NCBI GenBank assembly: GCA_020059585.1
Contig: JAGVBU010000008.1
Coordinates: forward strand, 22,163 to 86,162
Source: Minisyncoccota bacterium
GTDB taxonomy: Bacteria > Patescibacteriota > Minisyncoccia > UBA6257 > GWB1-50-10
Reading direction: 5' to 3'
Length of the DNA stretch: 64,000 nt
Part shown: positions 19,530 through 59,260 of the stretch, one piece after another
Position numbering within the stretch: position 1 is the stretch's first letter
Layout: each line of letters begins with the position of its first letter
Translations under genes and position numbers: made by a program
Notes under the pieces: generated by a model
The model's input: the letters and a program-made list of their open reading frames with translations, nothing else
Database searches by the model: none
Told to the model about the DNA's origin: nothing

Positions 19530-20351
19530 TTAATTTTTTTCTTGAGATGACGTTACAAAGAAATTTTCCATAAGTTTCATTACGAGAATAGGCCCCGTTC
19601 CACCCGGAGTGGGGGTATATGATATCGAAGATTCTTCTGGAAGCGATTCCGCGTCGAAATCTCCGCACAGCTCCCCGTCTTCCTTTCCATATCCGAAATC
19701 AATTATGTACGCATCCTTCTTTACCATATCAGGGCGTATAAGCTTCGGAATTCCCGTTCCTAATATCACGATATCCACGTGACGCAACACTTCAAAATCG
19801 TCTCCTTTTTTAAGGATAATAAGTTTCTTGCATTTTTCCTTAAGCCATAAGGAAACAGGAGTACCTATGAGCCTTCCCGTCCCCACTACCGCGACAATTT
19901 TTTCTTTCATCGGAAGGTGTCTCGTTATTTCAAAGACCACTCCCGCGGGCGGTGGAATAATGAAACTCATCCCATCACGAAAATCTGCGCGGGCGTTCGT
20001 ACTTAGCACGTCAACATCTTTCTCTTTGGGAATCGAATCGAGTATGTATTGAGTATCATACGCGCAAGGAAGGGGAAGTTGCACAAGCGCGCCACCGCAC
20101 GCATCTTCTCCCACAATATCCTGTATTTTTTTCCTCAATTGATCACTTGTTGTCGCATTTTCAGAAAAATTATATCTGCGGAAATCAATACCAAGTTCTC
20201 GGGCGACTTTCTCTTTCTGGTGTATAAAACTTTTCGACGCCGCGTCATCTCCCACAGAAAACACAGCGAGAAATTTATCCGTATGCTCTTTCCGGAGACG
20301 CGCGGCAATGTGTTCCGCGATGCTTTTTCCATCGACAATCATATGAACCAA
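19530..20351 (-). CDS. folD: Bifunctional methylenetetrahydrofolate dehydrogenase/cyclohydrolase
   Basis: FolD motifs VVGTGRLIGTPVSLWL and TPTPGGTGPILVMKLMEN. Confidence 0.85.
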   Translation of the reverse strand: MVHMIVDGKSIAEHIAARLRKEHTDKFLAVFSVGDDAASKSFIHQKEKVARELGIDFRRYNFSENATTSDQLRKKIQDIVGEDACGGALVQLPLPCAYDTQYILDSIPKEKDVDVLSTNARADFRDGMSFIIPPPAGVVFEITRHLPMKEKIVAVVGTGRLIGTPVSLWLKEKCKKLIILKKGDDFEVLRHVDIVILGTGIPKLIRPDMVKKDAYIIDFGYGKEDGELCGDFDAESLPEESSISYTPTPGGTGPILVMKLMENFFVTSSQEKN

Positions 20352-20371
20352 TCATACAGTTGTCTTTTCGT

Positions 20372-20406
20372 TTCTTCAAATAAAAACCCCGCAGGAAATG
20401 CGGGGA
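20372..20406 (-). terminator. Rho-independent terminator downstream of the 20417..21790 gene
   Basis: Stem CCCCGCA/TGCGGGG, 5-nt loop; T-tract on the minus strand. Confidence 0.5.
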
Positions 20407-20416
20407 ATGTATTTTG

Positions 20417-21790
20417 CTATCGTATCATATGCGCGGACACTAATGCGTTCCACATCGTTTCTCTTGATGGATTTTTTTCTCCATCGAGAATCGTCGCGAG
20501 AATTTCCGACGGTGAATTCTTCTTATATCTCATAACGAACTCATTGAGCCTCTCGCTTGTATCAATTCCCATAACGCGAAGTCCATATATCGCTCGAGTT
20601 ATCTCCATTTCCAAAGCTTCTTTAATAGAGACGCGCTCCAATAATCCGCCGTTATTTATCCATACAAGAGCATGCGTTCCATAAAGAAGTGCGCTCAGCC
20701 TATTTTCCTTCACGAGTTCAAATGGAAGCAATACCTCTCTCGTATGTGCCGCATAAAGAAGTCTGCCGACGAACGCAAGCGCGAACGATATCTCATCATC
20801 GGGAAACGGCTGCGTGGGAAGCATTCTAAATTCCACCACCGCGTCATTTCCTATTATCTTTAACCGCGTATCAAGCCAATGGAGTCCTATTCCTATGCGC
20901 AACGCCATCTCGGGAGCATACAGAATGAATGGATACCTTGATACACGCGAAAAATAATCTTCAATTCCCAAAAAATATCTCTCCGGAAGCCCTATGCGCG
21001 TTTTCATTCCCCGTATTACGTCGCGTACCGTTCGTGTGTCGTGGCTCGATTCCCACGAGAGAATGCGTATATCGTTTATACCGGTATCAGTACACTCAAG
21101 ATACCGGGAATTTCCGCCGATTCCCATAAGATACGGTCCGATCATAAATGCGTAATTCATAAGCATGACTGCGTCATTAAGAGATGAGGATCCCACATTC
21201 ACCTGAAATGACTGGAAGAGGGATACTATTGACGCGTCTCCTATATTCACCCGCGTTCCGCGTATTCCCATATGAATATCCGTATATTCTCTCCGGTGAA
21301 CATTCTGGAAATCAGGAACTTGCACGTATTTCTCCTTTTTCGTTCTTGGAGTTCCATGAATGCGCACAAACGGGTTTGTCCCGCACCTTAACGTTGAAAA
21401 CCCATGTTTCCTCGCAATGCGTTCGGCGGTATCGGTGATGCTTCGATATTTCTTTTCAAGAGATTCAAGTCCTTCTTGAGAAAAAATCCCTATCGGCGGC
21501 GTGCGGAGTTCAAGCTGAAACGCTCCGAGTTCAACATCCGCGCCCTCACCTCCGACCTCCGCCACTATCGCATCACGCACCGCTACCGTATCGGATTCCG
21601 TACTTTTAAGGTTAAAAACGCCTATTTCAGATTCAAGACCAATCTTCATGTCTTCGGGCCGGCGAACAAAAAGTTGCTTTTGAGAAATGATTCTCTTGGC
21701 TTCCTTATTGAATGCGCTACGCATTTCCCTTTCTTTTTTGCGATTATTCATCACACACCTCTGGTTATTTGTGTAAGAAATTCCGCCCAA
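20417..21790 (-). CDS. Carboxylate-amine ligase, glutamate-cysteine ligase family 2 (GCS2)-like, long form
   Basis: GxExE N-terminal motif (KIGLESEIGVF) and GCS2-like C-terminal signatures (TDIHMGI, AVVEFRMLPTQP). Confidence 0.45.
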   Translation of the reverse strand: MGGISYTNNQRCVMNNRKKEREMRSAFNKEAKRIISQKQLFVRRPEDMKIGLESEIGVFNLKSTESDTVAVRDAIVAEVGGEGADVELGAFQLELRTPPIGIFSQEGLESLEKKYRSITDTAERIARKHGFSTLRCGTNPFVRIHGTPRTKKEKYVQVPDFQNVHRREYTDIHMGIRGTRVNIGDASIVSLFQSFQVNVGSSSLNDAVMLMNYAFMIGPYLMGIGGNSRYLECTDTGINDIRILSWESSHDTRTVRDVIRGMKTRIGLPERYFLGIEDYFSRVSRYPFILYAPEMALRIGIGLHWLDTRLKIIGNDAVVEFRMLPTQPFPDDEISFALAFVGRLLYAAHTREVLLPFELVKENRLSALLYGTHALVWINNGGLLERVSIKEALEMEITRAIYGLRVMGIDTSERLNEFVMRYKKNSPSEILATILDGEKNPSRETMWNALVSAHMIR

Positions 21791-22509
21791 TATATTATTT
21801 CATCTTCGTGCGGCGTTATTCCGAACATCCTGCATTCCACTGTTCCGTGCACACTAATACGCACAAAATGGTAACAGCGTTTCGGATCGTCGGCGAATCC
21901 TTCTCTTAAGGCGGTTTCGAGGAAGTGTTCCGTATTTTCATATGTCGGAGGTTCCCATTTTTCCGCCATTTCCTTATAAAGCGCTATTCGTTCTCCGGAA
22001 GAATGGTCTCCCATGCGGATAAGTTCTTCCATATGTTCCACACACGCGTTATGAGTGGATATCGCGTCTTTAACGGAACCCACTCCGATATGTATATGTA
22101 TTCCCGCGACACGGCACGCGGAACGCAGACGATCAGTGCTGATAGCACGGGAGATATTTTCATATCGTTCCGTGGGAAACACGTCAAGCGGCATATCATA
22201 TGAAGCAACTTCTTCGCACACTAGTTTAGTTCCTATTTTTTCCGCGACAAGGATTCCACTATTCGTATTCCGAATAAGATCATATTTCAACTCAAGAAGA
22301 TTATCTCGCGGATCTGTTCTGTCCTCTACCTGACACGCGGAAAGCTCATACGTCCAGCGCGGATCTTTTATCTCCGAAAGAAACCTCTTTGCCTGAGGAA
22401 CATATATTCCCTCGGTATTTTTTAAGAACCGTTCGCGTTCAACTCCAACATAGTTTCTCATCGCGCCCGAAAATGAGAAATGAGAAAGGAATTTTTCCAT
22501 TGTATTCAT
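21751..22509 (-). CDS. Carboxylate-amine ligase, GCS2 family (YbdK-like), short form
   Basis: YVGVERERF, GIHIHIGVGS and HGTVECRMFG match the YbdK/GCS2 pattern HVHVG...TVEVRVMD. Confidence 0.5.
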   Translation of the reverse strand: MNTMEKFLSHFSFSGAMRNYVGVERERFLKNTEGIYVPQAKRFLSEIKDPRWTYELSACQVEDRTDPRDNLLELKYDLIRNTNSGILVAEKIGTKLVCEEVASYDMPLDVFPTERYENISRAISTDRLRSACRVAGIHIHIGVGSVKDAISTHNACVEHMEELIRMGDHSSGERIALYKEMAEKWEPPTYENTEHFLETALREGFADDPKRCYHFVRISVHGTVECRMFGITPHEDEIIYWAEFLTQITRGV

Positions 22510-22551
22510 TGTGTCTTCTCCATTATTTAGTTTTTAAATTACGCGGAAGAA

Positions 22552-22585
22552 ACAAAAAACCTCTTCCGAGGAAGAGGTTTTAAAA
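22552..22585. terminator. Bidirectional rho-independent terminator
   Basis: 7-bp stem CCTCTTC/GAAGAGG with 4-nt loop flanked by A- and T-tracts. Confidence 0.5.
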
Positions 22586-22672
22586 AGACGAATGAGTTTG
22601 CGTTAAAACACCTTCCCCGAGCGAGGTTTGTTCGTAAACCAATATGAGAAAGCGTGTATTGACTGTTGCATA

Positions 22673-23494
22673 TTACTTTTTCAGTGTACCTCGGCGCCGT
22701 GGAGTTTGTAAAGACCCATTCCATTGGCGCATGAAATTTCTTACTATTTTTCTTCCTACCGCATCCGTCGATCGTATTGAGGAAAGAAAATTCCCAACCC
22801 CCCTCCTTCCCCCGAATCCCTCCTCTTCAAGAGCTTTCATGCGCATACGTCCGATCGCGCGGATGTGAGAAACCCTCATTTCGGGATGAAATTGTAGAAG
22901 TCGAATACACTCACCGATTCCAATCGCCTCAATACGCGTCTTTTCGGAACTTCCGAGAAGCATCCATCCGGGGAGCATTTCTTTCACCATATAGCGATGG
23001 CTTTCCATCGACACAAACGAACTCTTCACTCCGCAGAAAAGATAATCGTCTATTCCTTTTTTTGTGAGAGTAATACGCGTATTTCCGAAATCGCGTCCGT
23101 TTTTATTCTCCACGATATCCCCATTGAGAGCCCGCACCGTAAATTGAAGTCCGCCGCATATTCCGAGAATTGGAATATTTTCTTTTTTTAATTTTCTTAT
23201 AAATGCGTAGGTTTTTTTCATCCATACGCTTTCGGATCCGCGAACAGGATTCTCAACAGACCCTCCGATGAATACCATGCGAATACGCGCCGTATCCGGA
23301 AATCTCCCTCGCGAGGCGTCAATCTCAAAAAAATCATTCTTCGAAATACCCGAAAAACGCCGCACGCTCTCTCCATAGGAAATTCCCCTATATACGGTAG
23401 TAGCGGTGCGTTCTTTTATTTTTTTATCTCCCGAAAGAATATCCAGAAATAATATTTTCTTCATTTGTTTCATGTTGATTGTACAATATATCAC
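22673..23494 (-). CDS. Class I glutamine amidotransferase-like / peptidase C26 (gamma-glutamyl hydrolase, PuuD-like)
   Basis: Nucleophile-elbow ILGICGGLQF and C-terminal His region (LLQFHPE) typical of GATase1/C26. Confidence 0.55.
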   Translation of the reverse strand: MIYCTINMKQMKKILFLDILSGDKKIKERTATTVYRGISYGESVRRFSGISKNDFFEIDASRGRFPDTARIRMVFIGGSVENPVRGSESVWMKKTYAFIRKLKKENIPILGICGGLQFTVRALNGDIVENKNGRDFGNTRITLTKKGIDDYLFCGVKSSFVSMESHRYMVKEMLPGWMLLGSSEKTRIEAIGIGECIRLLQFHPEMRVSHIRAIGRMRMKALEEEGFGGRRGVGNFLSSIRSTDAVGRKIVRNFMRQWNGSLQTPRRRGTLKK

Positions 23495-23521
23495 CCGGGA
23501 GAAGAATCTCCCGGGATATTT

Positions 23522-24445
23522 TTATATGAGGGGACTGAGTATCCTTCGCACAAAAGAAAACTGGTCTTTTATCGAAGAATCTTTCTTTCTCGCGCACGGA
23601 CGTATCTCGACACAGAGCTTTTCTCCGTAGCGCTTCAATCTGAAATGCCACCATACGGATCGTATGAAAAGAGGGATATTGAAAGAGGACGTTTCCTCGT
23701 GCGATATAAGCGTATTTCCGACTACGATAGCATGCTCCGCGAGGCGCGCGCAGTAATCCTCAATGCCGCCGAATAAAAGGGGTCCTCCATACCGATCGCT
23801 GCGATATCCTGCGCGCGATGAAGATATGTATCTTTTCCATAGCGCGTCCTGAGGATAATCCGAGAGGAACGCTTCAACATTCTCTCCAAGCGTATTCAGA
23901 ACATATATTGCATCCTCTGGACGCACATCAACAGTAAACTGGACTGATGAGGTCCGCGCGAGAAGGTTCAGCGCTTCCGGTCCGTCGAGCGCGAGCCATG
24001 CCGCGTCGCGTTCATCCGGCACTACAAGAAGATTCTCATCTGAATCGATGATCGGTCCGAAAAAAGGATACGCACCGCAGGCATTCGCGTTTTCTTCGAG
24101 AATCCACAATCCGCGTTGAGCTTCATCCACCGCGACATTCTTGTGTTTCGGAGAAAAACTGAGCTCTATATTATGCCTTCCAAGCTCATAAAGCATCCTA
24201 TCATTCCTCCATAAAGAAGTGAGTTCGGTGATCATCTTGTTTCTTTTCGCGGTGACAACCCACTCTCCATATCGCGTATCAGAATGAAATAGGTGAAATA
24301 TTTTCTTCGCGGTATCAATTGATATCGGAAAACCGGAACGATCGACAAACTGCGTTTCCACCTCGATCCCTATCATGGTACCGGTTGTGTATGCGCCTAT
24401 CCCCTCGGTAAAATAGCGTACCAACCGTGCTACTGTGTTTTTCAT
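23522..24445 (-). CDS. Carboxylate-amine ligase, GCS2 family
   Basis: N-terminal IGIEVETQFVD (GxExE) and C-terminal CVEIRPC region like the GCS2 RxxxVExRxxD. Confidence 0.5.
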   Translation of the reverse strand: MKNTVARLVRYFTEGIGAYTTGTMIGIEVETQFVDRSGFPISIDTAKKIFHLFHSDTRYGEWVVTAKRNKMITELTSLWRNDRMLYELGRHNIELSFSPKHKNVAVDEAQRGLWILEENANACGAYPFFGPIIDSDENLLVVPDERDAAWLALDGPEALNLLARTSSVQFTVDVRPEDAIYVLNTLGENVEAFLSDYPQDALWKRYISSSRAGYRSDRYGGPLLFGGIEDYCARLAEHAIVVGNTLISHEETSSFNIPLFIRSVWWHFRLKRYGEKLCVEIRPCARKKDSSIKDQFSFVRRILSPLI

Positions 24446-24490
24446 GACATACCTCTATTTATTTATAAATGTTCTTTTCCCTCCGAAAAC

Positions 24491-24517
24491 AAAAATCCCT
24501 CCGAAGGGAGGGTTGGT
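24491..24517 (-). terminator. Rho-independent terminator, likely for glyA
   Basis: Stem CCCTCC/GGAGGG with GAAG loop; T-tract on the minus strand. Confidence 0.45.
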
Positions 24518-24649
24518 TTCGTTCCTAATGATAAAACGTCCGAGGTGCGTCTACGTGCACAAAACCAATCCTCCCCAAAGAGAGATATCAGTATGGTTAC
24601 GATATGTCGCACAAAGCATGCTCATGTGTATAATATGCCATAAATTCCC

Positions 24650-25867
24650 TTATCGAGCAATAGGGAATTTTTTTGCGAGTATTTTTATCATTTTTTTTGT
24701 TTCCGCGACATTTTTCTTCAAAAGAATTGCGTGTATATATCCCGCAATATACCGCATCTCTCTCATCCCCATTCCTCGGGTAGTCATCGCGGGCGTTCCA
24801 ATTCTGATTCCCGAAGGATCTCCCGGCGTACGCGCATCAAACGGTATCATATTTTTATTGAGAATGATTCCCGCCTTTTCAAGCTCCCTGCTTGCGACCC
24901 CTCCTGAAATTCCTCTATGCGCCACATCAACGAGAAAAAGATGCGTATCGGTCCCATTTGAAACAATTCTCCACCCAAGGCGTTCTAATTCGTTCGCGAG
25001 CGCCTTCGCATTCTCAATGACGCGTGATGCGTATTTTCTGAACGCGGGCGTTCCTGCTTCGTGTAACGCAACCGCAATCGCGGCAACCTGATTCATATGA
25101 GGTCCCCCCTGTATTCCCGGAAACACAGCTTTATTGATTGCGGGGGAATAATTTTTCTTCGAAAAAATCATTGCCGCGCGAGGACCACGCAGTGTTTTGT
25201 GCGTAGTTGTTGTCACTACGTCCGCATAGGGGAACGGAGAAGGATACATCTTTCCCGCAACAAGCCCCGCGAAATGAGACATATCCACAAAAAGAATTGA
25301 TCCCGCCTCATCCGCAATCGTTCTCATTCTCTTAAAGTCTATCTTCCGTGCGTATGCGCTGCCTCCCGCGATGATACATTTAGGACGCGCGACAAGCGCG
25401 ATGTGCAGAAGTTCTCCATAATCAATTTCTTCGCGCAATCTATCAACGCCGTATGGAACCTGCTCCCATATTTTTCCGGTGACACTTGCCTTATGTCCGT
25501 GAGTCAGATGTCCTCCCATCGCAAGAGACATTGCCATTATCTTCTCTCCGCGGGGAATAAGCGCATGAAGCACCGCAAGATTTGCGGGAGATCCGGAATA
25601 GGGCTGCACGTTCACATCCCATTCTCCCGAAGAAACAGAAAACAGCTTCCGCGCTCTTTGTATTGCGAGTTTTTCAAGCGCATCAATCACACCGTTCCCC
25701 GCGTAATAACGCTCCGCAGGATATCCTTCCGCGTATTTATCGAGAAAAACGCTCCCAAGGGCTTCCCGTACGTCCTTGGACGCATAATTTTCCGACGCGA
25801 TAAGATTAATAGAATCGTCACGCCTTTGCGTTTCTTCGCGAATAAGTTTTCTTACTTCTTTATCCAT
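24650..25867 (-). CDS. glyA: Serine hydroxymethyltransferase
   Basis: PLP-lysine motif VTTTTHKTLRGPRAAMIF, YAGNGVID, N-terminal DDSINLIASENYAS. Confidence 0.9.
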   Translation of the reverse strand: MDKEVRKLIREETQRRDDSINLIASENYASKDVREALGSVFLDKYAEGYPAERYYAGNGVIDALEKLAIQRARKLFSVSSGEWDVNVQPYSGSPANLAVLHALIPRGEKIMAMSLAMGGHLTHGHKASVTGKIWEQVPYGVDRLREEIDYGELLHIALVARPKCIIAGGSAYARKIDFKRMRTIADEAGSILFVDMSHFAGLVAGKMYPSPFPYADVVTTTTHKTLRGPRAAMIFSKKNYSPAINKAVFPGIQGGPHMNQVAAIAVALHEAGTPAFRKYASRVIENAKALANELERLGWRIVSNGTDTHLFLVDVAHRGISGGVASRELEKAGIILNKNMIPFDARTPGDPSGIRIGTPAMTTRGMGMREMRYIAGYIHAILLKKNVAETKKMIKILAKKFPIAR

Positions 25868-37463: not shown

Positions 37464-37952
37464 ATGAGAAAAAATATCATTCTTCTTTTCATCGCCGTAC
37501 TCGTTGTTATTCCTCTTTCCGCGCACGCGTTATCATTTGATATCTGGGAAAACACCGAAAAGACGATTACTTATGCAAGCGGAACAATGAGAGCAACAAC
37601 CACTGAAAACTGCAACATAGTTGGATCGTGCAATCTCTGCGATGCTCTTCAGGTTTTCAAAAACATCGTGAATATACTTTTCACAATCGCAATACCTCTT
37701 GCGGTTGCGCTCATTATATATGGAGGCATACGCATTATGACGGCAGGAGGATCCGAACAAAACGTAGCGGAGGCGAGAAATATAATCACAAGCGCGCTTA
37801 TCGGTCTCGCAATCGCCCTCGCGGCATGGATGATTGTGAGTGTCGTCATCTCGGTTATTGCTCAATCAAGCTTTCCCACAACCACGGGGAGTACGATTGA
37901 TTTTAAATTTTGGAATAATATCGATTGTACCGTATCCCCGCAGATAAATTAG
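37464..37952 (+). CDS. VirB2/TrbC-like pilin paralog 1
   Basis: Signal peptide then two hydrophobic helices flanking a conserved GGSEQNV loop. Confidence 0.5.
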   Translation: MRKNIILLFIAVLVVIPLSAHALSFDIWENTEKTITYASGTMRATTTENCNIVGSCNLCDALQVFKNIVNILFTIAIPLAVALIIYGGIRIMTAGGSEQNVAEARNIITSALIGLAIALAAWMIVSVVISVIAQSSFPTTTGSTIDFKFWNNIDCTVSPQIN

Positions 37953-37975
37953 AAAAATTGTTTTATAATAAAGTT

Positions 37976-38320
37976 ATGACTCCGAGAAAAAAAATAGTTT
38001 CGATTGCGTGGGGAGGTCTTGCTGCCCTGCTTATAGCTCCATTGAAAGCGCGCGGCGCGCAGATACGGCTTGAAAATCCTTTGAGAACCGACGATCCTAT
38101 CGAGCTTCTGGGATCTATTGTGGATTGGCTCATTATTGCGGGTGCCCCAATCGCGGTTGTTATGGTTATATATGGCGCCTTCCAAATTATGACCGCGCAA
38201 GGAGATACCGAAAAATTCACTTCAGGAAGAAAAACAATTGTGTACGCCATCGTCGGCTATGGTATAATTATTTGCGCATGGGGCATCGTTGCGGTCATCC
38301 AAAGCGTATTAGAGGAATAA
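37976..38320 (+). CDS. VirB2/TrbC-like pilin paralog 2
   Basis: Same topology as paralog 1; loop motif QGDTEKF. Confidence 0.5.
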   Translation: MTPRKKIVSIAWGGLAALLIAPLKARGAQIRLENPLRTDDPIELLGSIVDWLIIAGAPIAVVMVIYGAFQIMTAQGDTEKFTSGRKTIVYAIVGYGIIICAWGIVAVIQSVLEE

Positions 38321-38364
38321 GCCCCGGAAAGGTCGAGAACAGAAACATCATATATATTTATTAT

Positions 38365-38733
38365 ATGTCAAAGAAACTCACTATAATTGTCGCGTCTGCG
38401 CTTGTTCTTTTGCCTGTCCTTGTGGGAGCTCAGGGAGGTGTCACGGTTCCCGACGCATCTCAAACTATTTTGGCGGGAGGGTATCAGGGAATTGCCGATA
38501 CGCTTTCCACGATCGCGAACTGGATGCTTGGTGTTCTCCTTTTACTTGCGGTAATCTTTTTCATCTATGCGGGATTTTTGTATCTCACTTCCGGTGGAGA
38601 GGAAGACAAGGTAAAGAAAGCGAAGGATTTCCTCGTGTACGGACTTATCGCCGTCGCGGTGGGACTTTTAGCGAAAGGTCTTGTTTCCGTTGTCTCAAAC
38701 CTTGTAATAGGAGGAGAGGCTCCGATAAACTAA
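38365..38733 (+). CDS. VirB2/TrbC-like pilin paralog 3
   Basis: Signal peptide; IANWMLGVLLLLAVIFFIYAGFLYLTSGGEEDKVKKAKDFLVYGLIAVAVGLLAKG, closely related to paralog 4. Confidence 0.5.
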   Translation: MSKKLTIIVASALVLLPVLVGAQGGVTVPDASQTILAGGYQGIADTLSTIANWMLGVLLLLAVIFFIYAGFLYLTSGGEEDKVKKAKDFLVYGLIAVAVGLLAKGLVSVVSNLVIGGEAPIN

Positions 38734-39161: not shown

Positions 39162-39243
39162 GCCGAGGTGGCGAAACTGGCAGACGCACTAGCTTTAGGA
39201 GCTAGCACCGAAAGGTATGCGGGTTCAAATCCCGCCCTCGGCA
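39162..39243 (+). tRNA. tRNA-Leu (anticodon UAG), class II with long variable arm
   Basis: 82 nt: acceptor GCCGAGG/CCTCGGC, anticodon stem CTAGC/GCTAG with loop TTTAGGA, extended variable arm, T-arm GCGGG-TTCAAAT-CCCGC. Confidence 0.85.
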
Positions 39244-39265
39244 CAATAAAAACAAAATATCCCCG

Positions 39266-40156
39266 TCACTTTTTTCTCCTTCTTCCATGAAATGCTTTAT
39301 GGATGTCTCTTAGCTCTTTGTTCGTAAGATGCGTATATATCTGCGTTGTAGAAACATTCGCGTGCCCAAGAAGAGACTGGACCGAACGGAGATCGGCGCC
39401 GTTTATAAGAAGGTCTGTCGCGAATGAGTGACGCAACTGATGAGGGTGGATTTTTTTGGGAATTCCCGCCGCGCGGGCATAAAAATCAACAAGACGCTCC
39501 ACCGAACGGGGAGTTATCCGTCCTATCACGTTTCCTGACCTGCTTAAACTTACGAAAAGCGCTTCTTCCGGATCGGTTCTTTTGTCTAGATACTTTCGAA
39601 TTGCTTTTCGCGCGCCCTCAGAGAGAAATACTACCCTAAGTTTGTCTCCTTTTCCCCGCACCGACACCTCACCTCGTTCAAGATCTATATATCGCTTAAG
39701 AGAACAGAGTTCGGAAAGACGGAGCCCCGTAGAAAAGAAGGTTTCAAGGATCGCTTTGTCGCGAAGCGCGCGAAGCGTCTCTCCTTCGGGAGCGCCTATA
39801 AGGCGTTCGAGTTCCCGGTAATCAAGCACCTCAATATCGCGTCTCGATGTTTTTGGTAGTTCTATCCTTTCCGGAGGAAGAGTTTCGTATCCTTGTTTTA
39901 TGAGATATTTAAGAAAATTTCTGATCGCGATCACGTAATATCCCTGCGTGTTTTTTTTAAGTTCTTTCCCCGACAAATGAACGCGAAAGTTTCGTACTTT
40001 TTCCGGAGTAATGTGCGAAAGTTTTCTTATTTTCTGATCCTCGAAAAACGCGAGAAGATACCTACTGTAGTTTTCGCGTGTTTTCCGAGATCTGTTTTTC
40101 TCTATCTCAAGATAATCGAGATACTGCTCAAGAAGTGTATACGCCTCTTCTTTCAT
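39266..40156 (-). CDS. Tyrosine site-specific recombinase, XerC/XerD-like
   Basis: 296 aa; N-terminal core-binding domain (LEQYLDYLEIEKNRSRKTRENY), catalytic R..HxxR..Y set (RDKAILETFFSTGLRLSEL; HQLRHSFAT; IYTHL). Confidence 0.75.
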   Translation of the reverse strand: MKEEAYTLLEQYLDYLEIEKNRSRKTRENYSRYLLAFFEDQKIRKLSHITPEKVRNFRVHLSGKELKKNTQGYYVIAIRNFLKYLIKQGYETLPPERIELPKTSRRDIEVLDYRELERLIGAPEGETLRALRDKAILETFFSTGLRLSELCSLKRYIDLERGEVSVRGKGDKLRVVFLSEGARKAIRKYLDKRTDPEEALFVSLSRSGNVIGRITPRSVERLVDFYARAAGIPKKIHPHQLRHSFATDLLINGADLRSVQSLLGHANVSTTQIYTHLTNKELRDIHKAFHGRRRKK

Positions 40157-48677: not shown

Positions 48678-48792
48678 GGTTCTCCGTGCGTGCTGTGTTA
48701 CCCTGTAACGCGTTATGTTGTATAATAAAAAGAGTATCACGCAAGTAAAATAGCGGGAATTCTTGTGAGTGCCGCTTTTTATCTCAACACAC

Positions 48793-49581
48793 ATGACACT
48801 TTCATCAAAAAGCAAAAAACTCACCGCGGCCGTAATTGTGGGCGCGGGAATCATCGGAACATACCTCATACTCTCCTCCGAACGTGCTAATGGAAACGTC
48901 TTTTTTGACGTGGATTTCAAAAAAAACAGCGACGCGGCTCTCGGATTTCAAAAAGGAGATGTTGTTCCGAATAATCCGAATAACACATTTGATCCAAACA
49001 ACCTTACGGACGTATTTCTCAGTAAATACGCGGCCGAGATATTAAAGAAGAACCCCCAAGGACCCCTCGATCTAGAAGGTCAGAGAAAGATAACAATCCC
49101 ATCACAGGAATCGCTCGAAAAAATAATTCAAGAGGAGATGGAACAGGGAGTCGCGATACAAGAAGTCACCTCGCGGGAAATAAAACACACCACCGACGAT
49201 TCTCCGGCGGCAGCGCTTTCATACATACAAAGCATCATCTCAGCGAATGAGCGTATGTCAAAGAAAACAAACAACAACCTTGGGGAGGTGGCGTATTTAT
49301 GGCTTGAAAAAAACAATGCCGATCCCATCACAAAACAGATGGACGCGCTTTCGGTGCTCGTGTCTGATCTTCTCGCGGTGCCGGTACCTCCCTCATGGAA
49401 AGACGTTCATCTCTCCATGATCAACCTCCAGCAAAAAAAAATTACAGTGCTTCAGAGTATCTTTGATATTAACAGCGATCCCGTAAAAGCGCTTGCCGCG
49501 GCGCACATTATAGAAACACTCTCACTTGAAGAGCAGGATGTCGCGCGTATGATCCGGACAAAAGCACAAAAAATCCTCTAA
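48793..49581 (+). CDS. Membrane-anchored hypothetical protein (VirB8-like candidate by topology only)
   Basis: N-terminal TM helix (LTAAVIVGAGIIGTYLILS) followed by ~230-aa extracytoplasmic domain. Confidence 0.35.
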   Translation: MTLSSKSKKLTAAVIVGAGIIGTYLILSSERANGNVFFDVDFKKNSDAALGFQKGDVVPNNPNNTFDPNNLTDVFLSKYAAEILKKNPQGPLDLEGQRKITIPSQESLEKIIQEEMEQGVAIQEVTSREIKHTTDDSPAAALSYIQSIISANERMSKKTNNNLGEVAYLWLEKNNADPITKQMDALSVLVSDLLAVPVPPSWKDVHLSMINLQQKKITVLQSIFDINSDPVKALAAAHIIETLSLEEQDVARMIRTKAQKIL

Positions 49582-49584
49582 ACG

Positions 49585-51276
49585 ATGAAAAATCCGTATC
49601 TCAAAATATTTACCTCTTTCTTTATATCGGTGTTTCTCGCAACGAACGTCTTTTTACTTATCCCTCCAAAGCCGGTTCAGGCACAGGGACTTGTCGCTGA
49701 TCTTGCGGAAGCGTGCGTGGGAGGACTCGTAAAAACTCTTCTTGGAGATGAAATTGCGGGAGCTCTGGAAGACGCGGTAGATTGGGCAAAGGGAGCGCTG
49801 GGGCTCAGCGTGCTGGATAATAAGGTCCCCACAGACGATTCAAAAACACAGGGACAGATAAAGCTCTCAACTATTGAGGTGTGTCTCACCGCGGTGAAAG
49901 AAATTGCGATCCGTATCGCGCGGGCAATTTTGAAGAAGCAGCTTCTCGATCAGATTGTTGATCAGACTATCCAATGGATACAGGACGGCACTCAGCCGAA
50001 ATTCGTAGGTAACTTCGGGGAATTCTTCAACGATGCAGTTGATGCGGGAATAGGAGAAACAATACGAGAGATAGGACTCGGAGAATTTTGCGACGGACCC
50101 GTAAAGGCGAAAATACAGATAAACCTCACGAAGCCGGCGCGATTTTATGAACGCGCATCCTGTACTCTGAGCGATGTGGTGGGAAACATAGAGGCATTCA
50201 AGGAAAATTTCAAAAACGGATCATGGATAGGGATTCAGGAGGCGGTAAGTCCCCAAAACAACAGACACGGCATATATCTCCTCGCGATGGAAAAAATGCT
50301 TGAGGAGACCGAGAAAGAGGATAAGGCGGCGCAGGCCGAAATCGTAGGAAGCGGGGGATTCAACGCGCAAAAAACATGCGTGCTCTGGGTGCTTACCGAT
50401 ATCAATAAACGATATCTCGCTGACACAAGCGGAAGTCTTATATATGACTACACTGAGAAAAGCATCAATGATCCGCCGCCACCGCCCGCAAACGCGCCAG
50501 CAGGAAGTACGTTTATCTGCGATCCTATGGGAGAGGTTGTTGTCACGCCCGCAAAAACAATCGGTGATTCCGTATCGAAAGCGGTGACTTCTGATATCGA
50601 CTACATATTGAATGCCGAGGATCTCGAAACGTACGCGAGCGCGATTCTTGATGCCGCGATAAACCGTCTCACGAAAGATGCGGTAACAGGAATCAGAAAT
50701 CTCGGCACCACATCACAATCAGATCACCAACAAAACATAACTAATGCGTCTGGTGAATATAATAATGCGATGAGCGGGCAGAGTCTCGCGGCAGGAATTG
50801 AGGCGGGAGTGCGCGGACAAATTACAGCTCAAGCGAACGGGCTCTCGGGAGGACTCGATCAGGCATCCTCAACTCTCGACGCGATTGCGATCGCGAACGA
50901 AGCGCTTATAAAGGTTCTTGATAATTCAGGGACTCCGCGCGGACTCACTCAATGTATAGCAACCAACGCACAATTCGTGATAACCCCCTCTACATTCTCT
51001 CCGAATGCGGTGCTCTCCGACGCGCTTTCAAGGAAAAACACGTGGATTCCTCAGGAAATACAGAACCTTGCGCAGGCGCGGCAATCAACGGCTCAACTCA
51101 TATCAAATCTCGGCGGAAATTCAATGACGGTGAATATACTTTCCCAGATACTGCAGGGATTACAGGAAACGGTAACTGAGAAAAACGCGGAATATCAATC
51201 CATACTCTCAGAGATTACCGCTGACACGGGCACGGCCACCACAAACAGGGACGCGTGCGGAGGCGGAGGAAATTAA
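49585..51276 (+). CDS. Large secreted protein (hypothetical)
   Basis: Signal peptide (…KPVQA-QG), 563 aa, PPPPPANAPAG linker, C-terminal GGGGN. Confidence 0.4.
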   Translation: MKNPYLKIFTSFFISVFLATNVFLLIPPKPVQAQGLVADLAEACVGGLVKTLLGDEIAGALEDAVDWAKGALGLSVLDNKVPTDDSKTQGQIKLSTIEVCLTAVKEIAIRIARAILKKQLLDQIVDQTIQWIQDGTQPKFVGNFGEFFNDAVDAGIGETIREIGLGEFCDGPVKAKIQINLTKPARFYERASCTLSDVVGNIEAFKENFKNGSWIGIQEAVSPQNNRHGIYLLAMEKMLEETEKEDKAAQAEIVGSGGFNAQKTCVLWVLTDINKRYLADTSGSLIYDYTEKSINDPPPPPANAPAGSTFICDPMGEVVVTPAKTIGDSVSKAVTSDIDYILNAEDLETYASAILDAAINRLTKDAVTGIRNLGTTSQSDHQQNITNASGEYNNAMSGQSLAAGIEAGVRGQITAQANGLSGGLDQASSTLDAIAIANEALIKVLDNSGTPRGLTQCIATNAQFVITPSTFSPNAVLSDALSRKNTWIPQEIQNLAQARQSTAQLISNLGGNSMTVNILSQILQGLQETVTEKNAEYQSILSEITADTGTATTNRDACGGGGN

Positions 51277-51289
51277 TTTTCAGAATCTG

Positions 51290-53449
51290 ATGAAATCGCA
51301 TATACAAAAAATACTCGGATCGGCGCTTACGCTTTTCTTTGCGTTTCTTGCGATCCCTTTCCCCGCTGACGCGCTCTTTTTCCTCGGACCGCTCGCCGTC
51401 GCGGCAATCGCGTACGCGGTACTCTATATCCTCCAATACATTGGCGCGATGTTCTTCAGTCTCGCGGGATATCTCGTTGGATTTTTCCTCGATTTCAATT
51501 ACCAGATACTCTCGCCGAATAATATGGTGGTTACGATTGGATGGGAGATCACACGTGACATCGCAAACCTCGGGTTCGTGCTTGTAATCATAATTATTGC
51601 GCTCGCAACCATCATCCGTTATCAGGATTACGGCGCGAAAAAACTTCTTCCCCGTCTCATCGGAGCCGCGCTCCTCGTAAATTTCAGTCTCTCTCTTGCG
51701 GGAGTGTTTATCGGGTTCTCTCACGTGATCACGCGCTATTTCTTTAACGCGGTTGCGGAGAAGGATAATATTGTCGATCTCGTAAAGACACTTTCTGGCG
51801 CGTTTGATCCGCAGGCGCTTTTTACCGAACCATCGGAACCAGAGCCTGTTGATCCCGATGAAGAAGCGGGAGGGCTTTCGGGATTCGGCACCGCGGTGCT
51901 TATGAACATCACGGGATTATTCTTCGTGGTAATTTTCACATTCATCGCATCGTTCGTGCTTCTCGCGTTCGCCCTTATGCTTCTTATCCGCTACGTCGCG
52001 CTCTCATTTCTTATGATCCTCGCTCCAATCGCGTGGCTTTTCTGGGTGATTCCCTCACTTGAAAGCCAATTCTCTAAATGGTGGAGCAGGTTTCTTAAAT
52101 GGGTATTTTTCGCCCCCGCCGTTTCCTTCTTCTTTTATCTCGCGCTGGTGAGCATTGGAAGAATGAAACAGGGTACGGGCGCCGTCACTCCCACTCAATT
52201 TTTCAAAAACGGATTTATATCGGCGATGATGCAGCAGGGCGCGCGCATGGCGATTCTTATCGGACTCCTCATTGGGGGACTTATGGTTGCCGACAGTATG
52301 GGCACCACGGGCGCCAAGGGCGCGATGAACCTCCTGAACAAAGGTGTGGATAAGAGCAAGAAATGGCTTGGAGCAAAGGCAAAGGAGGGCGCGACACGCG
52401 CCGCAACCGCGCCTCTCAGGACCGATACGGGAAGGAGTTTTGTAAACAAGCTTCAGACCCTCGGCAAGGATAGTAAATGGGGTGGTGCAGCCGCACCGTT
52501 ACGAATGATGGGATCAAGCCTTGCTGGTGTTACCGCAAAAGCGGAACAACAATACCAAACAACGAAGGCGAAGTTTGAAAAAATGAGTACGGAAAAAATT
52601 GCGGCGGGACACGCAAACGCAAACGACGAGGAACGCGCAGCAGGCGTTGACGTAATCGCGGAGAGAGGAAAGAAAATCGGAGACGCGCTTATTGACGCAG
52701 AAAAAGAGATTGAACGGTCCGTGAGAGCACTCGAAAAAGCGAAAGAAAGCGGCGATCAAAACTCTATAGTTGCCGCGGAAGAGCGTCTCGATAAGGCAAA
52801 CGAGAAGAAAGGAGCGGTTAAGAAGGAACAATATCAATACGAGGAAGCGCTCAAGAATCTCCCCGCAAATACTCGTGATGGAATTGGAAATATAGGACAA
52901 TATGTCTCCGACAAACAAAATAAAGTCCCCACAAAACAATTTGATATTGCTAACATTACAACGAAAGAGGATGGTGTCCTCTTCCGAAGAACAAAGAGGG
53001 GAGCACGGTACATCGCAACACGAAAAGCCCCCACCGAAGGAGAATTAAACGATGCGCGACAAGCAATACCTTCCGCCCAAAATAAACTGAACGCCTCTGT
53101 TGCGAATGCCGCAACAGCACGGACAAATCTTGCTGGATTTAGAACCGCAAGAACAACCGCAGAAGCAGATAAGAGAAATGCCCAGATAGAGCATGATAGA
53201 TTTGCAAACCAAAAAACATTCAATCAAGCGGATGAAAACGCGAGACTAAATAACCTCGCGGCGGCAAAAAGAAGATTAGATAATGCAACGCAACAAACAA
53301 AGGATATTGAAGAGGAGATAAAAGATACCGAGCAAAAGATACGTGAAGAAACAAAGGCTCGTGATGATCTTGCAAAAGCCCAGCAAAAACTACAAAATCT
53401 TGAACGCCAGAATCGAGAAGGATGGAGAAGAAAAGAGCACAAGCCATAA
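51290..53449 (+). CDS. VirB6/TrbL-like polytopic membrane protein with C-terminal coiled-coil tail
   Basis: ~330-aa N-terminal domain with at least 6 TM helices, then ~390-aa Ala/Lys/Glu/Gln-rich predicted coiled coil. Confidence 0.5.
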   Translation: MKSHIQKILGSALTLFFAFLAIPFPADALFFLGPLAVAAIAYAVLYILQYIGAMFFSLAGYLVGFFLDFNYQILSPNNMVVTIGWEITRDIANLGFVLVIIIIALATIIRYQDYGAKKLLPRLIGAALLVNFSLSLAGVFIGFSHVITRYFFNAVAEKDNIVDLVKTLSGAFDPQALFTEPSEPEPVDPDEEAGGLSGFGTAVLMNITGLFFVVIFTFIASFVLLAFALMLLIRYVALSFLMILAPIAWLFWVIPSLESQFSKWWSRFLKWVFFAPAVSFFFYLALVSIGRMKQGTGAVTPTQFFKNGFISAMMQQGARMAILIGLLIGGLMVADSMGTTGAKGAMNLLNKGVDKSKKWLGAKAKEGATRAATAPLRTDTGRSFVNKLQTLGKDSKWGGAAAPLRMMGSSLAGVTAKAEQQYQTTKAKFEKMSTEKIAAGHANANDEERAAGVDVIAERGKKIGDALIDAEKEIERSVRALEKAKESGDQNSIVAAEERLDKANEKKGAVKKEQYQYEEALKNLPANTRDGIGNIGQYVSDKQNKVPTKQFDIANITTKEDGVLFRRTKRGARYIATRKAPTEGELNDARQAIPSAQNKLNASVANAATARTNLAGFRTARTTAEADKRNAQIEHDRFANQKTFNQADENARLNNLAAAKRRLDNATQQTKDIEEEIKDTEQKIREETKARDDLAKAQQKLQNLERQNREGWRRKEHKP

Positions 53450-53458
53450 CACGCAACT

Positions 53459-55132
53459 ATGGATCAAAAAGACATATTAAACGCGTCACCGGAAAATCTT
53501 TTAACCTCTTTTCCTGTATGGGAAGAAAGCGTGTGGACCGCGCTTCAAAAAAAAGATTATGCGGAAGCGGCGGATAAACTTCAGGACACTCTAGAATATT
53601 TTACCGACGAGGGTCTCTCCCAAATACTATGGAAATCTCTTTTGGAGGGTATTCCTGCAGTTCGTGGCGCCCTTTCTTCTGATGAGTGGAATAGCGAAGT
53701 CCTTCCCTTTCTCGCACTTGCATTCATTAATTTTGCTGATGGACGCGCAATCGCCGATACATATCAAAGAACATCCCTTGAAATAATAAAAAAATTTCAC
53801 CCTCTTGTTGTAGATTCGATTCCCGGAGAAACTCCTGAAGAAAAAGTCGCGCTTCTTAAAACCTCCGCGTCATCAACGTACATCTATCTCACCGCAAGTC
53901 CCGCGCAGATTTTCGGACTCGGACTCTTTCCTATTCCCCAAAAACTCCCCTCGAATGAAAAAAAGAAGCCCGAGTATCAACTTGGATTTCTCTCGGAGAT
54001 ATTACGATATGGAATCTTCTCGTTCGACACCGCCCAAGATCTTTTTCTTATTGCTCAAAATAGAAAATTAGACGAAAAAAAGATGAGCGCGCTCGCGTAT
54101 GCGACGGGATCCGTACTCTTGGGAATTATAGCCCTCGATGATTTTTCCACCGCGCTGAAAGAAATAATTGATACACCTCCCGAAGAATGCGACTTCATCG
54201 CGAAAGAAATACGGGAAAAGATATTGGAGAAACACCGAAGGGAGATAAAGGAATTATTTGAAGGAACAAAAGAGGCCACAATCCCATCCGGAGAAACCGT
54301 CTCTCTGGAAGTGTTCGGATTTGACGGAGAAAAAGCAAAAGAAGCCGCTCCCGTGAAAATCACGCCGGAAAAAACGAGCGCGCCAGAAACGGCTCCTCTT
54401 GTGATACACAGAGAAAAACCGTCTCCTTTCGGATTTCAGAACGCGGGATCAAAACAATCATCCGGAAAAAGCTTTTCGCTTCCTTTTGGTTTTTTCAAAT
54501 CCAAATCGGATAATGCTTCTCCGAATCCGGTGCGCGCCACGATAGAGCTTCCAAAAATCCTCAAGCCGGAGGAAAAGAAAACTATTCATTATAGTGAACT
54601 CAGAACTCCCATTACTCCGTTTCAAAAAGAAAAGGCATTTATCAGTACCGACACGGAAAAGAGCGGGAAGGGTGATGATCAGAAAAAAACACCCGCGGAT
54701 ATCATACAGAAAAAAGAGGATAACGCGCTTAATCTTTCTTTAGTAGACACGAAAAAAGATCTTCAAAAAGAGAGGGCTCGCGTGAAAGAGGTGTTTTCCT
54801 CTATTTCTGCCGGTTCCGCGTCCTCGCAGAAAAACATTATAAAAGAAGATACCCGTCCGACGGCTATTTTGAAAAAAGAATATACTCTTATAAACAAATC
54901 TCCGGAAAAAATACCCCCATCTTCTAATATATCCTCCGATACCCCCCTTAAGAAACAGGTTCAGGCAGATTTGAAAAACGTCAGCGCAAAAACCCCGCAA
55001 GAAAAACCCCAACTCACCGGAAAGGGATTCTTTTGGGGGTTTCCAAAAAAGAAACCCGCCGAAGCACCCGCCGTTAAAAGACCCGAAACAGGTCCGGAAA
55101 TCGAGGGAAATAAACTTAATCTCAAAAAATAA
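53459..55132 (+). CDS. Hypothetical protein; structured N-terminal half, disordered K/E/P-rich C-terminal half
   Basis: 557 aa, no signal peptide or TM; low-complexity C-terminus. Confidence 0.35.
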   Translation: MDQKDILNASPENLLTSFPVWEESVWTALQKKDYAEAADKLQDTLEYFTDEGLSQILWKSLLEGIPAVRGALSSDEWNSEVLPFLALAFINFADGRAIADTYQRTSLEIIKKFHPLVVDSIPGETPEEKVALLKTSASSTYIYLTASPAQIFGLGLFPIPQKLPSNEKKKPEYQLGFLSEILRYGIFSFDTAQDLFLIAQNRKLDEKKMSALAYATGSVLLGIIALDDFSTALKEIIDTPPEECDFIAKEIREKILEKHRREIKELFEGTKEATIPSGETVSLEVFGFDGEKAKEAAPVKITPEKTSAPETAPLVIHREKPSPFGFQNAGSKQSSGKSFSLPFGFFKSKSDNASPNPVRATIELPKILKPEEKKTIHYSELRTPITPFQKEKAFISTDTEKSGKGDDQKKTPADIIQKKEDNALNLSLVDTKKDLQKERARVKEVFSSISAGSASSQKNIIKEDTRPTAILKKEYTLINKSPEKIPPSSNISSDTPLKKQVQADLKNVSAKTPQEKPQLTGKGFFWGFPKKKPAEAPAVKRPETGPEIEGNKLNLKK

Positions 55133-55203
55133 GGGGAAATTGTGAGAATCAGCGAACGGCGATATACTAAAGATGATATATTGCCGTTTTTTTTCATACC
55201 ATT

Positions 55204-55704
55204 ATGGCAACCTTTCAAGTTCCCCAATTTATAGATCAGAAACCGAAAATCGTAGGTCCCCTTACGCTCCAGCAATTTGCGTTTGTCGGAAGCGCGGCGC
55301 TTCTCAGTTTTATCTTCTATTACACATTTGATACGTTTCTCTGGATATTTTTTTCCATTGTTCTTGGATCAATCGCCCTCCTCCTCGCGTTCGGAAAAGT
55401 GAACGGGCAGGAGGCAACCATCGTCCTGAAATCCCTTTTTAAATTTCTTCTTGAGCCCAGGCTTTTTCTTTGGGAAAAAAACTTCTCCGAGAAAAAAAAG
55501 GAAGAGTCAGCGGAAAGTATCGCATCGGTCAGAAACACAATGAGCATCCAGCAGAAACTCAAATCGATAACACTGAACATAACGACGGGGAAGGCGTTTT
55601 CACCAAAAATATCCCAAGAAACGCAGAAAAAGGAGGGCTTCCAAGTGGCTACATTTTCCACCGGAGAGAAAAAATTTGTAAAAAAAGTCGACTACAGCGA
55701 ATAG
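55204..55704 (+). CDS. PrgI/VirB3-like small membrane protein
   Basis: N-terminus MATFQVPQFIDQKPKIVGPLTLQQFAFVGSAALLSF then a second TM, matching the PrgI-family signature and position immediately upstream of VirB4. Confidence 0.5.
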   Translation: MATFQVPQFIDQKPKIVGPLTLQQFAFVGSAALLSFIFYYTFDTFLWIFFSIVLGSIALLLAFGKVNGQEATIVLKSLFKFLLEPRLFLWEKNFSEKKKEESAESIASVRNTMSIQQKLKSITLNITTGKAFSPKISQETQKKEGFQVATFSTGEKKFVKKVDYSE

Positions 55705-55746
55705 GAATTCTTCGCATAACAAAAAGGAATCGATTACAATATCAAT

Positions 55747-56400
55747 ATGCCACCAAAGAGCCAACCAGACGCAAAGCCATCACAAGAATTTGTTGCGGTG
55801 AAGAAAATACACGATGGCGTTCTCTACCTGAAAAAGGGTGGAATTTGCCGCGTACTTATTGTAAGCGGGATTAATTTTGATCTGAAATCAGAAGCGGAAC
55901 AAAATATGATACTTTCAAGTTTTCAAAATTTCCTCAACACCCTTGACTTCTCCGTCCAATTTTTCATCCACTCAAGAAAAGTAAATATTGAAGAATACAT
56001 GGAGAAAATGAAAGAACGGAAAGAGCAGGAAACAAATGAGCTCCTAAAAATACAAATCGAAGAATACATGAATTTTATACAATCCTTCGTTGATCAAAAT
56101 GATATTGTGACAAAATCCTTTTTCATTGTGGTGCCCTATGAATCAGTACACGTCGTCAATCAAGCACGGGGAGTATTGTCCCTCTTCAAAAAATCAGCCC
56201 CCCAATCCACGGAAACTATCGCCCAAGAGGATATACAACAATTAAACCATCGGGTGGATCAGGTAACCCTAGGACTCGAGCAAATAGGTCTCCGCGTAGC
56301 CCCTCTCGAAGACGATGAGCTTCTCGAGTTGTTCTACAACCTTTACAATCCTCGCCTCGTCGAAAAAAAAGGACTTGAGTTGTCACATAAAGAAAAATAA
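55747..56400 (+). CDS. VirB4/TraE-family N-terminal domain, separate ORF
   Basis: 217 aa resembling the N-terminal domain of Gram-positive VirB4 (VAVKKIHDGVLYLKKGGICRVLIVSGINFDL...); TAA stop 4 nt before the ATG of the ATPase ORF. Confidence 0.55.
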   Translation: MPPKSQPDAKPSQEFVAVKKIHDGVLYLKKGGICRVLIVSGINFDLKSEAEQNMILSSFQNFLNTLDFSVQFFIHSRKVNIEEYMEKMKERKEQETNELLKIQIEEYMNFIQSFVDQNDIVTKSFFIVVPYESVHVVNQARGVLSLFKKSAPQSTETIAQEDIQQLNHRVDQVTLGLEQIGLRVAPLEDDELLELFYNLYNPRLVEKKGLELSHKEK

Positions 56401-56404
56401 CACC

Positions 56405-58147: not shown

Positions 58148-58153
58148 CACCAC

Positions 58154-58540: not shown

Positions 58541-58555
58541 TGTATAATAAATGGA

Positions 58556-59245: not shown

Positions 59246-59260
59246 ATATAAACACCACTT

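Follow-up and report, generated by a model that had tools for sequence, protein, structure and literature searches.

A candidate gene module of Patescibacteria for making and cleaving a gamma-glutamyl amide

In a 64,000-nucleotide stretch of a Minisyncoccota bacterium contig (JAGVBU010000008.1; hereafter the window), the genes glyA and folD enclose three ligase-like open reading frames (ORFs) of 307, 252 and 444 amino acids (aa), here called ligases 1, 2 and 3, together with a gene for a class-I amidotransferase-like protein (GATase). In our interpretation, to which we give an even chance, the four enclosed genes represent a Patescibacteria-specific module for the synthesis and cleavage of a small-molecule gamma-glutamyl amide (gamma-Glu-X). 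Each ligase would use ATP to activate a carboxylate by phosphorylation, most probably the one in the gamma position of glutamate, and couple it to an amine, with an amino acid as the most likely acceptor X, and the GATase would cleave the same kind of gamma-glutamyl bond, providing turnover or recycling. Ligases 2 and 3 possibly act in succession to yield a gamma-glutamyl di- or tripeptide, perhaps a thiol of the gamma-Glu-Cys type, and ligase 1 would form a separate ligase-peptidase pair. The physiological role could be that of a thiol, of an amino-acid buffer or store, or of a salvage function. We infer the reaction, its substrates and product, the order of steps, the role and the action of the hydrolase on the ligase product from the folds, conserved catalytic motifs, gene order and recurrent partners observed here.

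All three ligase ORFs are GCL-fold (glutamate-cysteine-ligase-fold) enzymes, as judged from structural models for ligases 1 and 3 and from profile comparison for ligase 2. The AlphaFold model of ligase 1 (23522..24445, minus strand; pLDDT 94.8) has the plant GCL 2gwc as its best PDB match in Foldseek (E 1e-9, TM-score 0.73), followed by YbdK and then by glutamine synthetases. That of ligase 3 (20417..21751, minus strand; pLDDT 94.5), a full-length GCL-fold ligase, matches YbdK (2.6e-13, TMt 0.82), plant GCL (9e-12) and yeast GCL (6e-9), and the best PDB matches of the two models are 2gwc, 1r8g, 1tt4 and 3ig5. Ligase 3 is also recognized by the Pfam family GCS2 (PF04107; 1.3e-9, 38.3 bits against a cut-off of 21), and its family profile matches plant GCL at 1e-7. 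Ligase 2 (21751..22509, minus strand) reaches GCS2 and Amidoligase_2 at about 1e-4, barely over the cut-offs (for GCS2, 21.6 bits against 21), with matches to GCS2 in 38 and to Amidoligase_2 in 10 of the 42 members of its family. The ligase 2 profile aligns with residues 13-246 of the 372 residues of YbdK (1r8g), and the C-terminal region of YbdK, about 100 residues, is absent. For ligase 1, neither a Pfam nor an NCBIfam match was obtained, and none of 48 family members is significant for GCS2. Thus, the initial annotation of three GCS2-type ligases stands at the level of the fold for all three proteins, but for the 307-aa ORF the GCS2 label was a guess, given the lack of any Pfam or NCBIfam match.

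The motifs of the three families coincide. Invariant in the ligase 1 family are ExE, E-x6-E, SVQFT and ExR (profile A1: E28, E30, E87, E94, Q169, E280 and R282), and in the ligase 2 family ExE, E-x6-E, HxH and ExR (A2: E24, E26, E55, E62, H138, H140, E225 and R227). In the ligase 3 family, E40, E42, E74, E81, E307 and R309 are invariant and Q183 nearly so (A3). The ExE, E-x6-E, Q/H and ExR positions are those that we take to be the metal ligands of GCL and, since these motifs are invariant in all three families, all three ligases are probably active. Two exceptions to the integrity of ligase 3 were encountered among its homologs: in locus L009 the gene is split into two overlapping ORFs (L009:10755-11830), and in L028 it has shrunk to a 113-aa ORF (L028:9852-10193). 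These anomalies may be frameshifts, decay or assembly errors.

Sequence comparison suggests that the ligases belong to three anciently diverged families, which are almost confined to Patescibacteria. More than 253 homologs of ligase 1, with 45-65% identity, all lack a Pfam domain; the dozen or so that carry a source name are each called 'hypothetical protein' and come from Patescibacteria lineages (for example Jorgensen-, Collier-, Pace- or Saccharibacteria). An exhaustive profile search across 1.84 billion representatives found only 128 clusters of this family. For ligase 2, 458 homologs were found. In profile-profile alignments, the three families can be joined along their entire length, at E-values of only 4e-5, 8e-4 and 2e-5. 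A recent tandem duplication of the ligases was rejected, because the families match at the profile level only, with E-values of 1e-5 to 1e-3. Nor does any of the three group with the canonical GshA, YbdK, EgtA or PuuA, a possibility raised by the initial annotation: the scores lie far under the NCBIfam cut-offs, with 41 bits for ligase 2 and 27.9 for ligase 3 against the YbdK model TIGR02050 (cut-off 176.4), and 49 for ligase 2 against PRK13517 (cut-off 409). The same annotation regarded three ligases as an oddity of a small genome; they are instead conserved within a subgroup of Patescibacteria.

The hydrolase of the proposed module is a class-I GATase of the peptidase C26 type (22673..23464, minus strand), which matches Pfam GATase (PF00117; 1.6e-17, 64.2 against a cut-off of 22.8) and Peptidase_C26 (PF07722; 3e-6, 27.5 against 20.5). 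A family profile (A4) was built from 17 orthologs of the surveyed loci, and its best PDB match is the Arabidopsis gamma-glutamyl peptidase GGP1 (9k7i; E 1e-25), over positions 20-249 of 256. The match to GMP synthase subunit A (3e-21) covers only the catalytic core, positions 88-202. The catalytic triad is invariant (C106 in GICGG, H196 and E198 in HPE) and aligned with C100, H192 and E194 of GGP1. A conserved arginine of an MRK motif falls within one position of GGP1 R206, which binds the P2'/C-terminal carboxylate, the alignment register being uncertain here. In glutathione and glutathione conjugates, GGP1 cleaves the gamma-glutamyl isopeptide bond (PMC12958103; PMC9804317). We consider the GATase a candidate GGP1-like gamma-glutamyl peptidase, the sequence by itself fitting either a peptidase or a glutaminase. 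The earlier label of the protein as C26 gamma-glutamyl-hydrolase-like was reasonable, because the best solved relative, over the full length, is GGP1, and GMP synthase subunit A scores lower and over the core only.

Two surveys show how widely these genes travel together: one took the 252-aa family as its anchor and covered 43 species-representative genomes, the other took the 307-aa family and covered 82 loci (loci are cited below by their survey numbers). The order ligase 1, GATase, ligase 2, ligase 3 recurs in at least 14 independent loci, which argues that the arrangement is not due to chance. It is complete in L007, L013, L019, L020, L026, L030, L059, L064, L067, L087, L097 and L127 and truncated in L008 and L049. 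Variants without the 307-aa gene occur in L005, L009, L012, L014 and L016, and in L003/L018 and L036 the class-I GATase is replaced by a class-II (Ntn) GATase downstream of the ligase pair, which begins with MC and hence with the catalytic N-terminal cysteine.

Ligases 1 and 2 also each occur alone, in strikingly similar contexts. Among the 72 loci in which a gene follows ligase 1, this gene encodes an AstE/AspA deacylase in 19, a GGP1-like GATase in 15, an AIG2/GGACT-like gamma-glutamylcyclotransferase with a Pfam GGACT match in another 15, and a class-II GATase in two (L121 and L124); an M20 deacylase of the ArgE/DapE type adjoins ligase 1 in eight loci, downstream in four and upstream in four. 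In a neighbour-joining tree of ligase 1, the partner types fall in different clades, the cyclotransferase type in several. Upstream, a YerC/YecD gene of the TrpR family is present in 34 of 71 loci. Ligase 2 has AstE in 6 loci, M20 in 3, the class-I GATase in about 16 and the class-II GATase in L003/L018 and L036, and a YerC-like gene lies upstream of standalone ligase 2 in 5 loci. Hence, two ligase families whose relationship is barely detectable have converged on the same type of regulator and on the same five non-homologous hydrolase partners. In Firmicutes, YerC acts as the histidine-responsive repressor HisR (PMC9413887), which suggests amino-acid-linked control of the ligases as well.

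The common denominator of the five partner types is the cleavage of an amide with a gamma-glutamyl (succinyl-like) acyl group, and the metallo-hydrolases among them (AstE and M20) point to an amine part that carries a carboxylate. Enzymes with these folds, namely cyclotransferases of the ChaC/GGCT type, Dug3-type class-II GATases, Dug1/2 M20 enzymes and the plant gamma-glutamyl peptidases, are the known alternative routes of glutathione degradation. Collectively, the GCL folds with their metal-ligand motifs, the likeness of the GATase to GGP1 and the exchange of one amide-cleaving partner for another elsewhere lend support to the idea of paired gamma-glutamyl ligation and deglutamylation, which was already put forward in the initial annotation.

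The same neighbourhoods bear on a different scheme, a glutamine-dependent amidotransferase, in which the GATase would hydrolyse glutamine and pass ammonia to one or more of the ligases, and these would activate a carboxylate, for instance one of the cell wall or of an amino acid, as an acyl phosphate and turn it into a carboxamide, in the manner of MurT/GatD. GATases of class I or class II that retain their nucleophiles do adjoin the ligases, acyl-phosphate chemistry is suitable for amidation, and the similarity to GMP synthase subunit A fits this scheme too. We nevertheless consider it unlikely, given that the orthologous partners, cyclotransferase-like, AstE and M20 proteins, are no source of ammonia, that the best full-length relative of the GATase is a peptidase and no synthase subunit, and that a terminator separates the GATase gene from ligases 2 and 3. 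Furthermore, we know of no GCL-fold enzyme that takes channelled ammonia.

Should the acceptor be an amine other than an amino acid, such as a polyamine, the block would encode a gamma-glutamyl-amine pathway, either for detoxification or catabolism similar to that of PuuA/PuuD, or for a transient protecting group that the hydrolase removes. A ligase and a hydrolase with the logic of PuuA/PuuD are at hand, the GATase profile has a weak match to the PuuD structure (6vtv; 4e-5), and the AIG2/GGACT-type partner belongs to cyclotransferases that act on gamma-glutamyl-amines. Against this stand the GCL fold of the ligases, which is not of the PuuA/GlnA type, and the lack of oxidase or dehydrogenase genes alongside them in the surveyed loci; moreover, the AstE and M20 partners and the amino-acid-type YerC regulator argue for an acceptor with a carboxylate. 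This pathway, too, strikes us as improbable.

Distant fold matches of ligase 3 include PafA and Dop, and two or three paralogous GCL-fold proteins per block are reminiscent of the PafA and Dop pair. The block could then serve Pup-like tagging of proteins or peptides, or the modification of a ribosomal peptide, in which a GCL-fold ligase would link the glutamate side chain of a peptide to a target, with a paralog or the GATase as deamidase or remover. This is very unlikely, as the TM-scores to Dop and PafA are about 0.43, against 0.66-0.82 to YbdK and GCL, and the block lacks a conserved small ORF, those found downstream varying between loci; for want of such an ORF, Pup-like tagging was rejected. 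Iyer et al. also concluded against tagging for analogous neighbourhoods (PMC2588565).

The gamma-glutamyl amide interpretation finds its closest parallels in systems that combine a ligase with an enzyme that cleaves the gamma-glutamyl bond. In the plant glutathione enzymes (GSH1-type GCL, GGP1 and GGCT), a GCL is likewise paired with a peptidase or cyclotransferase: in structure, the plant-type GCL is the nearest match, or one of the nearest, of ligases 1 and 3, the GATase family is nearest to GGP1, and the alternative partner found elsewhere has the gamma-glutamylcyclotransferase fold. However, sequence identity is only 11-17%, there is no ATP-grasp glutathione synthetase, three GCL-fold ligases are present rather than one, and the cyclotransferase partner is of the AIG2/GGACT rather than the ChaC/GGCT2 type. 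YbdK, a carboxylate-amine ligase of Escherichia coli with weak gamma-Glu-Cys ligase activity, has the same fold and motifs, including the HxH of ligase 2, and is the structure that ligase 3 matches best. PuuA/PuuD and EgtA/EgtC similarly combine a ligase with a gamma-Glu hydrolase of the class-I (PuuD) or class-II (EgtC) GATase type, but PuuA is GlnA-type, and the Egt pathway needs EgtB, EgtD and EgtE, none of which was detected among the 29 Pfam-scanned ORFs of the window (about 45 candidate genes) or in the surveyed loci. Unlike in both of these systems, no intervening modifying enzymes are encoded here.

In 2008, Iyer, Burroughs and Aravind described neighbourhoods in which a GCS2-sized ligase adjoins a GATase-like thiol peptidase or an Aig2 cyclotransferase, and predicted that these synthesize glutathione-like peptides (PMC2588565). 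The logic of ligase plus thiol peptidase or Aig2 protein is the same, and ligase 2 reaches the Amidoligase_2 model; by contrast, the ligase families are different, the hosts are Patescibacteria instead of Proteobacteria and Firmicutes, each block holds two or three ligases, with no Pfam model for ligase 1, and a YerC-like regulator and partners of the AstE and M20 types come in addition. The type of system, a GCL-like ligase beside a gamma-glutamyl-cleaving enzyme, is thus already known as a computational prediction. The literature searched on Patescibacteria or the Candidate Phyla Radiation makes no mention of these ligase families or of relevant gamma-glutamyl or glutathione synthesis.

Several points weigh against the proposed module. 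A ligase together with a hydrolase of its own product would be futile unless the two are regulated or kept apart by a further step, and the block contains no gene for one. N-acyl amino acids are the usual substrates of AstE and M20 enzymes, so that gamma-glutamyl specificity is an extrapolation; GATases of either class can equally well donate ammonia. A fixed three-step pathway is unlikely, because ligases 1 and 2 each stand alone in many genomes. A strong terminator lies between the GATase and ligases 2 and 3. In the lineage of the window, no YerC-like gene lies beside the block. Finally, no cysteine or thiol genes were recognized among the recurrent neighbours in the surveyed loci, which were read from sequence motifs only and comprise RecR, DnaB, L21, a GNAT protein, a tRNA-binding protein and a phosphatase-like protein. 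Thiol genes are likewise missing from the scanned ORFs of the window.

At its most specific, the proposal would be that Patescibacteria produce a gamma-glutamyl di- or tripeptide that has so far escaped detection, do so with GCL-fold ligases only, one of them from a family that lacks a Pfam model and is conserved throughout the radiation, use interchangeable cleaving enzymes and control the system by a YerC/HisR-like repressor that senses an amino acid. The product may then be a low-molecular-weight thiol of the gamma-Glu-Cys type or a compound for amino-acid storage or buffering. We regard this version as tentative and, on balance, doubtful.

The Patescibacteria are a large, mostly uncultivated group of bacteria with very reduced metabolism, thought to be minimal in biosynthesis, so that conserved enzyme families restricted to this group hint at what its members still have to produce on their own. 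The ligase 1 family, with no Pfam model, a confidently modelled GCL fold and about 50% identity between lineages of different candidate-phylum names, is such a case. Its consistent position beside enzymes that cleave gamma-glutamyl or N-acyl amides offers a testable route to a missing metabolite, be it a thiol, a gamma-glutamyl amino acid or an amide.

The position of the block between glyA and folD had been taken to suggest, as one candidate, that a FolC-independent gamma-glutamyl tail is placed on a folate-like cofactor and removed by the hydrolase, in concert with GlyA and FolD. The C26 family does include folate conjugase and the M20 family carboxypeptidase G, the block lies between the two genes not only in the window but also in L005/L006, L007 and L020, and in L005 the GATase gene begins within the end of glyA. 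Nevertheless, a functional link to folate is highly improbable. Among the 43 surveyed genomes, glyA and folD flank the block in L007 and L020 only, and outside that survey in the window, L005/L006 and the near-identical L130-L132. Because the flanks with an exonuclease, recA, an HTH_25 gene and ftsK are shared as well (in L005/L006, L007, L020 and L130; L131 and L132 stop at folD), this is one inherited arrangement, a single evolutionary event, and no independent evidence. Unrelated genes surround the block in other lineages, Yanofskybacteria and Liptonbacteria among them. About 15 further loci of GTDB species with at least two module genes (L008-L036 and L049; L018 repeats L003) have no folate gene nearby, nor has any of the 82 loci anchored on ligase 1. 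Together with the terminators that isolate glyA and folD in the window, the restriction to a single syntenic lineage disfavours the folate reading; the two genes are neighbours through lineage-specific synteny and not members of the pathway, and a tempting link to folate metabolism is thereby removed. The fold of the three ligases also differs from those of known folate and F420 glutamyl ligases. Neither of the features of a FolC-type enzyme, a Mur-ligase fold or conserved linkage to folate genes, was found, the fold being that of GCL and the flank that of one lineage. No folC was detected among the scanned ORFs of the 64-kb window, in which MurD is the sole Mur-type ligase, and a regular-expression search of the window for the FolC/Mur P-loop gave no match and was uninformative, as it missed the murD gene too.

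As initially annotated, the block consists of six ORFs on the minus strand between 19530 and 25867, with matching coordinates and lengths, in the order glyA, 307-aa ORF, class-I GATase, 252-aa ORF, 444/457-aa ORF and folD. The two flanking housekeeping genes encode serine hydroxymethyltransferase (glyA; 24650..25867, minus strand; 405 aa, Pfam SHMT 1.4e-149), which lies outside the module in most genomes, and methylenetetrahydrofolate dehydrogenase/cyclohydrolase (folD; 19530..20351, minus strand; 270-273 aa, Pfam THF_DHG_CYH and THF_DHG_CYH_C). The start sites were corrected with the help of a relative at 97-100% identity (GCA_020724625.1), whose gene calls make it likely that the true starts give 263 rather than 273 aa for the GATase (ORF reaching 23494), 444 rather than 457 aa for ligase 3 (ORF reaching 21790) and 270 aa for FolD. 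The stop codon of ligase 2 and the ATG of ligase 3 have one base in common (TGATG), by which ligase 3 is predicted to be translationally coupled to ligase 2.

The internal terminators noted earlier were recovered as terminator-like hairpins by a terminator scan, which found 20 such sites in the region against 8.0 ± 2.8 in shuffled sequences. All on the minus strand, they comprise a long imperfect hairpin with a U-run as the terminator of glyA (24497..24590; minimum free energy -54.4 kcal/mol, z -2.2), a strong intrinsic terminator with an 11-bp stem and a T-run between the GATase and the ligase pair (22556..22581), and an intrinsic terminator 3' of ligase 3, ahead of folD (20387..20405). A weaker, GC-rich palindromic hairpin with a weak T-tail, between ligase 1 and the GATase (23494..23515), may be an attenuating or weak terminator. 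The likely transcription units, as predicted from these signals, are glyA, the 307-aa gene (with the GATase), the 252-aa and 444-aa genes together, and folD.

The spacer between glyA and ligase 1 (24446-24649, minus strand) is far more conserved than the flanking proteins when compared with L007:7867-8062 and L130:9798-10000. In L007, the 3' two-thirds of the spacer have nearly the same sequence, though the neighbouring proteins share only 65-73% identity. The hairpin in this spacer has conserved stems, a variable tip and a U-run, and it is followed by a conserved stretch that contains the perfect palindrome ATTTATAAAT, just ahead of the ribosome-binding site of ligase 1. This stretch upstream of the 307-aa gene appears promoter- or operator-like, and the spacer as a whole could be a terminator plus operator or, alternatively, a small structured RNA. 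An Rfam scan of the block, spacer hairpin included, returned no known RNA family.

Some features of the surveyed neighbourhoods are limited to particular lineages. A 113-aa protein, read from its sequence as a tRNA-binding-domain protein, is encoded just upstream of the 307-aa gene in L026, L107 and L127, and the gene that directly follows the 444-aa gene in L064, L067 and L087 encodes a 194-aa protein, likewise read from its sequence as a GNAT acetyltransferase; both belong to the clade with the class-I GATase. At loci where an AstE-like deacylase accompanies a solitary 252-aa ligase, a tryptophan 2,3-dioxygenase-like gene (PF03301, 5e-23) is nearby in L032, L041 and L043, and a predicted tryptophanyl-tRNA synthetase with class-I HIGN/KMSKS-type motifs is found near the 252-aa ligase in L041 and L043-L045, which hints at a link to tryptophan in this clade. 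In L001 (Collierbacteria, a 1.09-Mb contig), L051-L056 and L126, the 307-aa ligase and an M20 deacylase lie inside a cluster of aminoacyl-tRNA synthetase genes (GlyRS, HisRS, AsnRS/AspRS-type and TyrRS/TrpRS-type) that also holds murA and murB, with no second or third ligase nearby.

The scanned ORFs of the window are otherwise ordinary housekeeping genes of a small genome, along with a region resembling a type IV secretion system (T4SS; 37464-38733 and 48769-61919). This region includes three T4SS_pilin genes, a gene for a TraG/VirB4-like P-loop ATPase (56315-58147) and a run of large ORFs without Pfam matches (48769-55132 and 58556-60490). Between the T4SS-pilin genes and the PNPase gene, a tyrosine recombinase gene of the phage-integrase family (39266-40156, minus strand) directly adjoins a tRNA gene (39162-39243), and this site (39162-40156) may mark the border of an integrated element.

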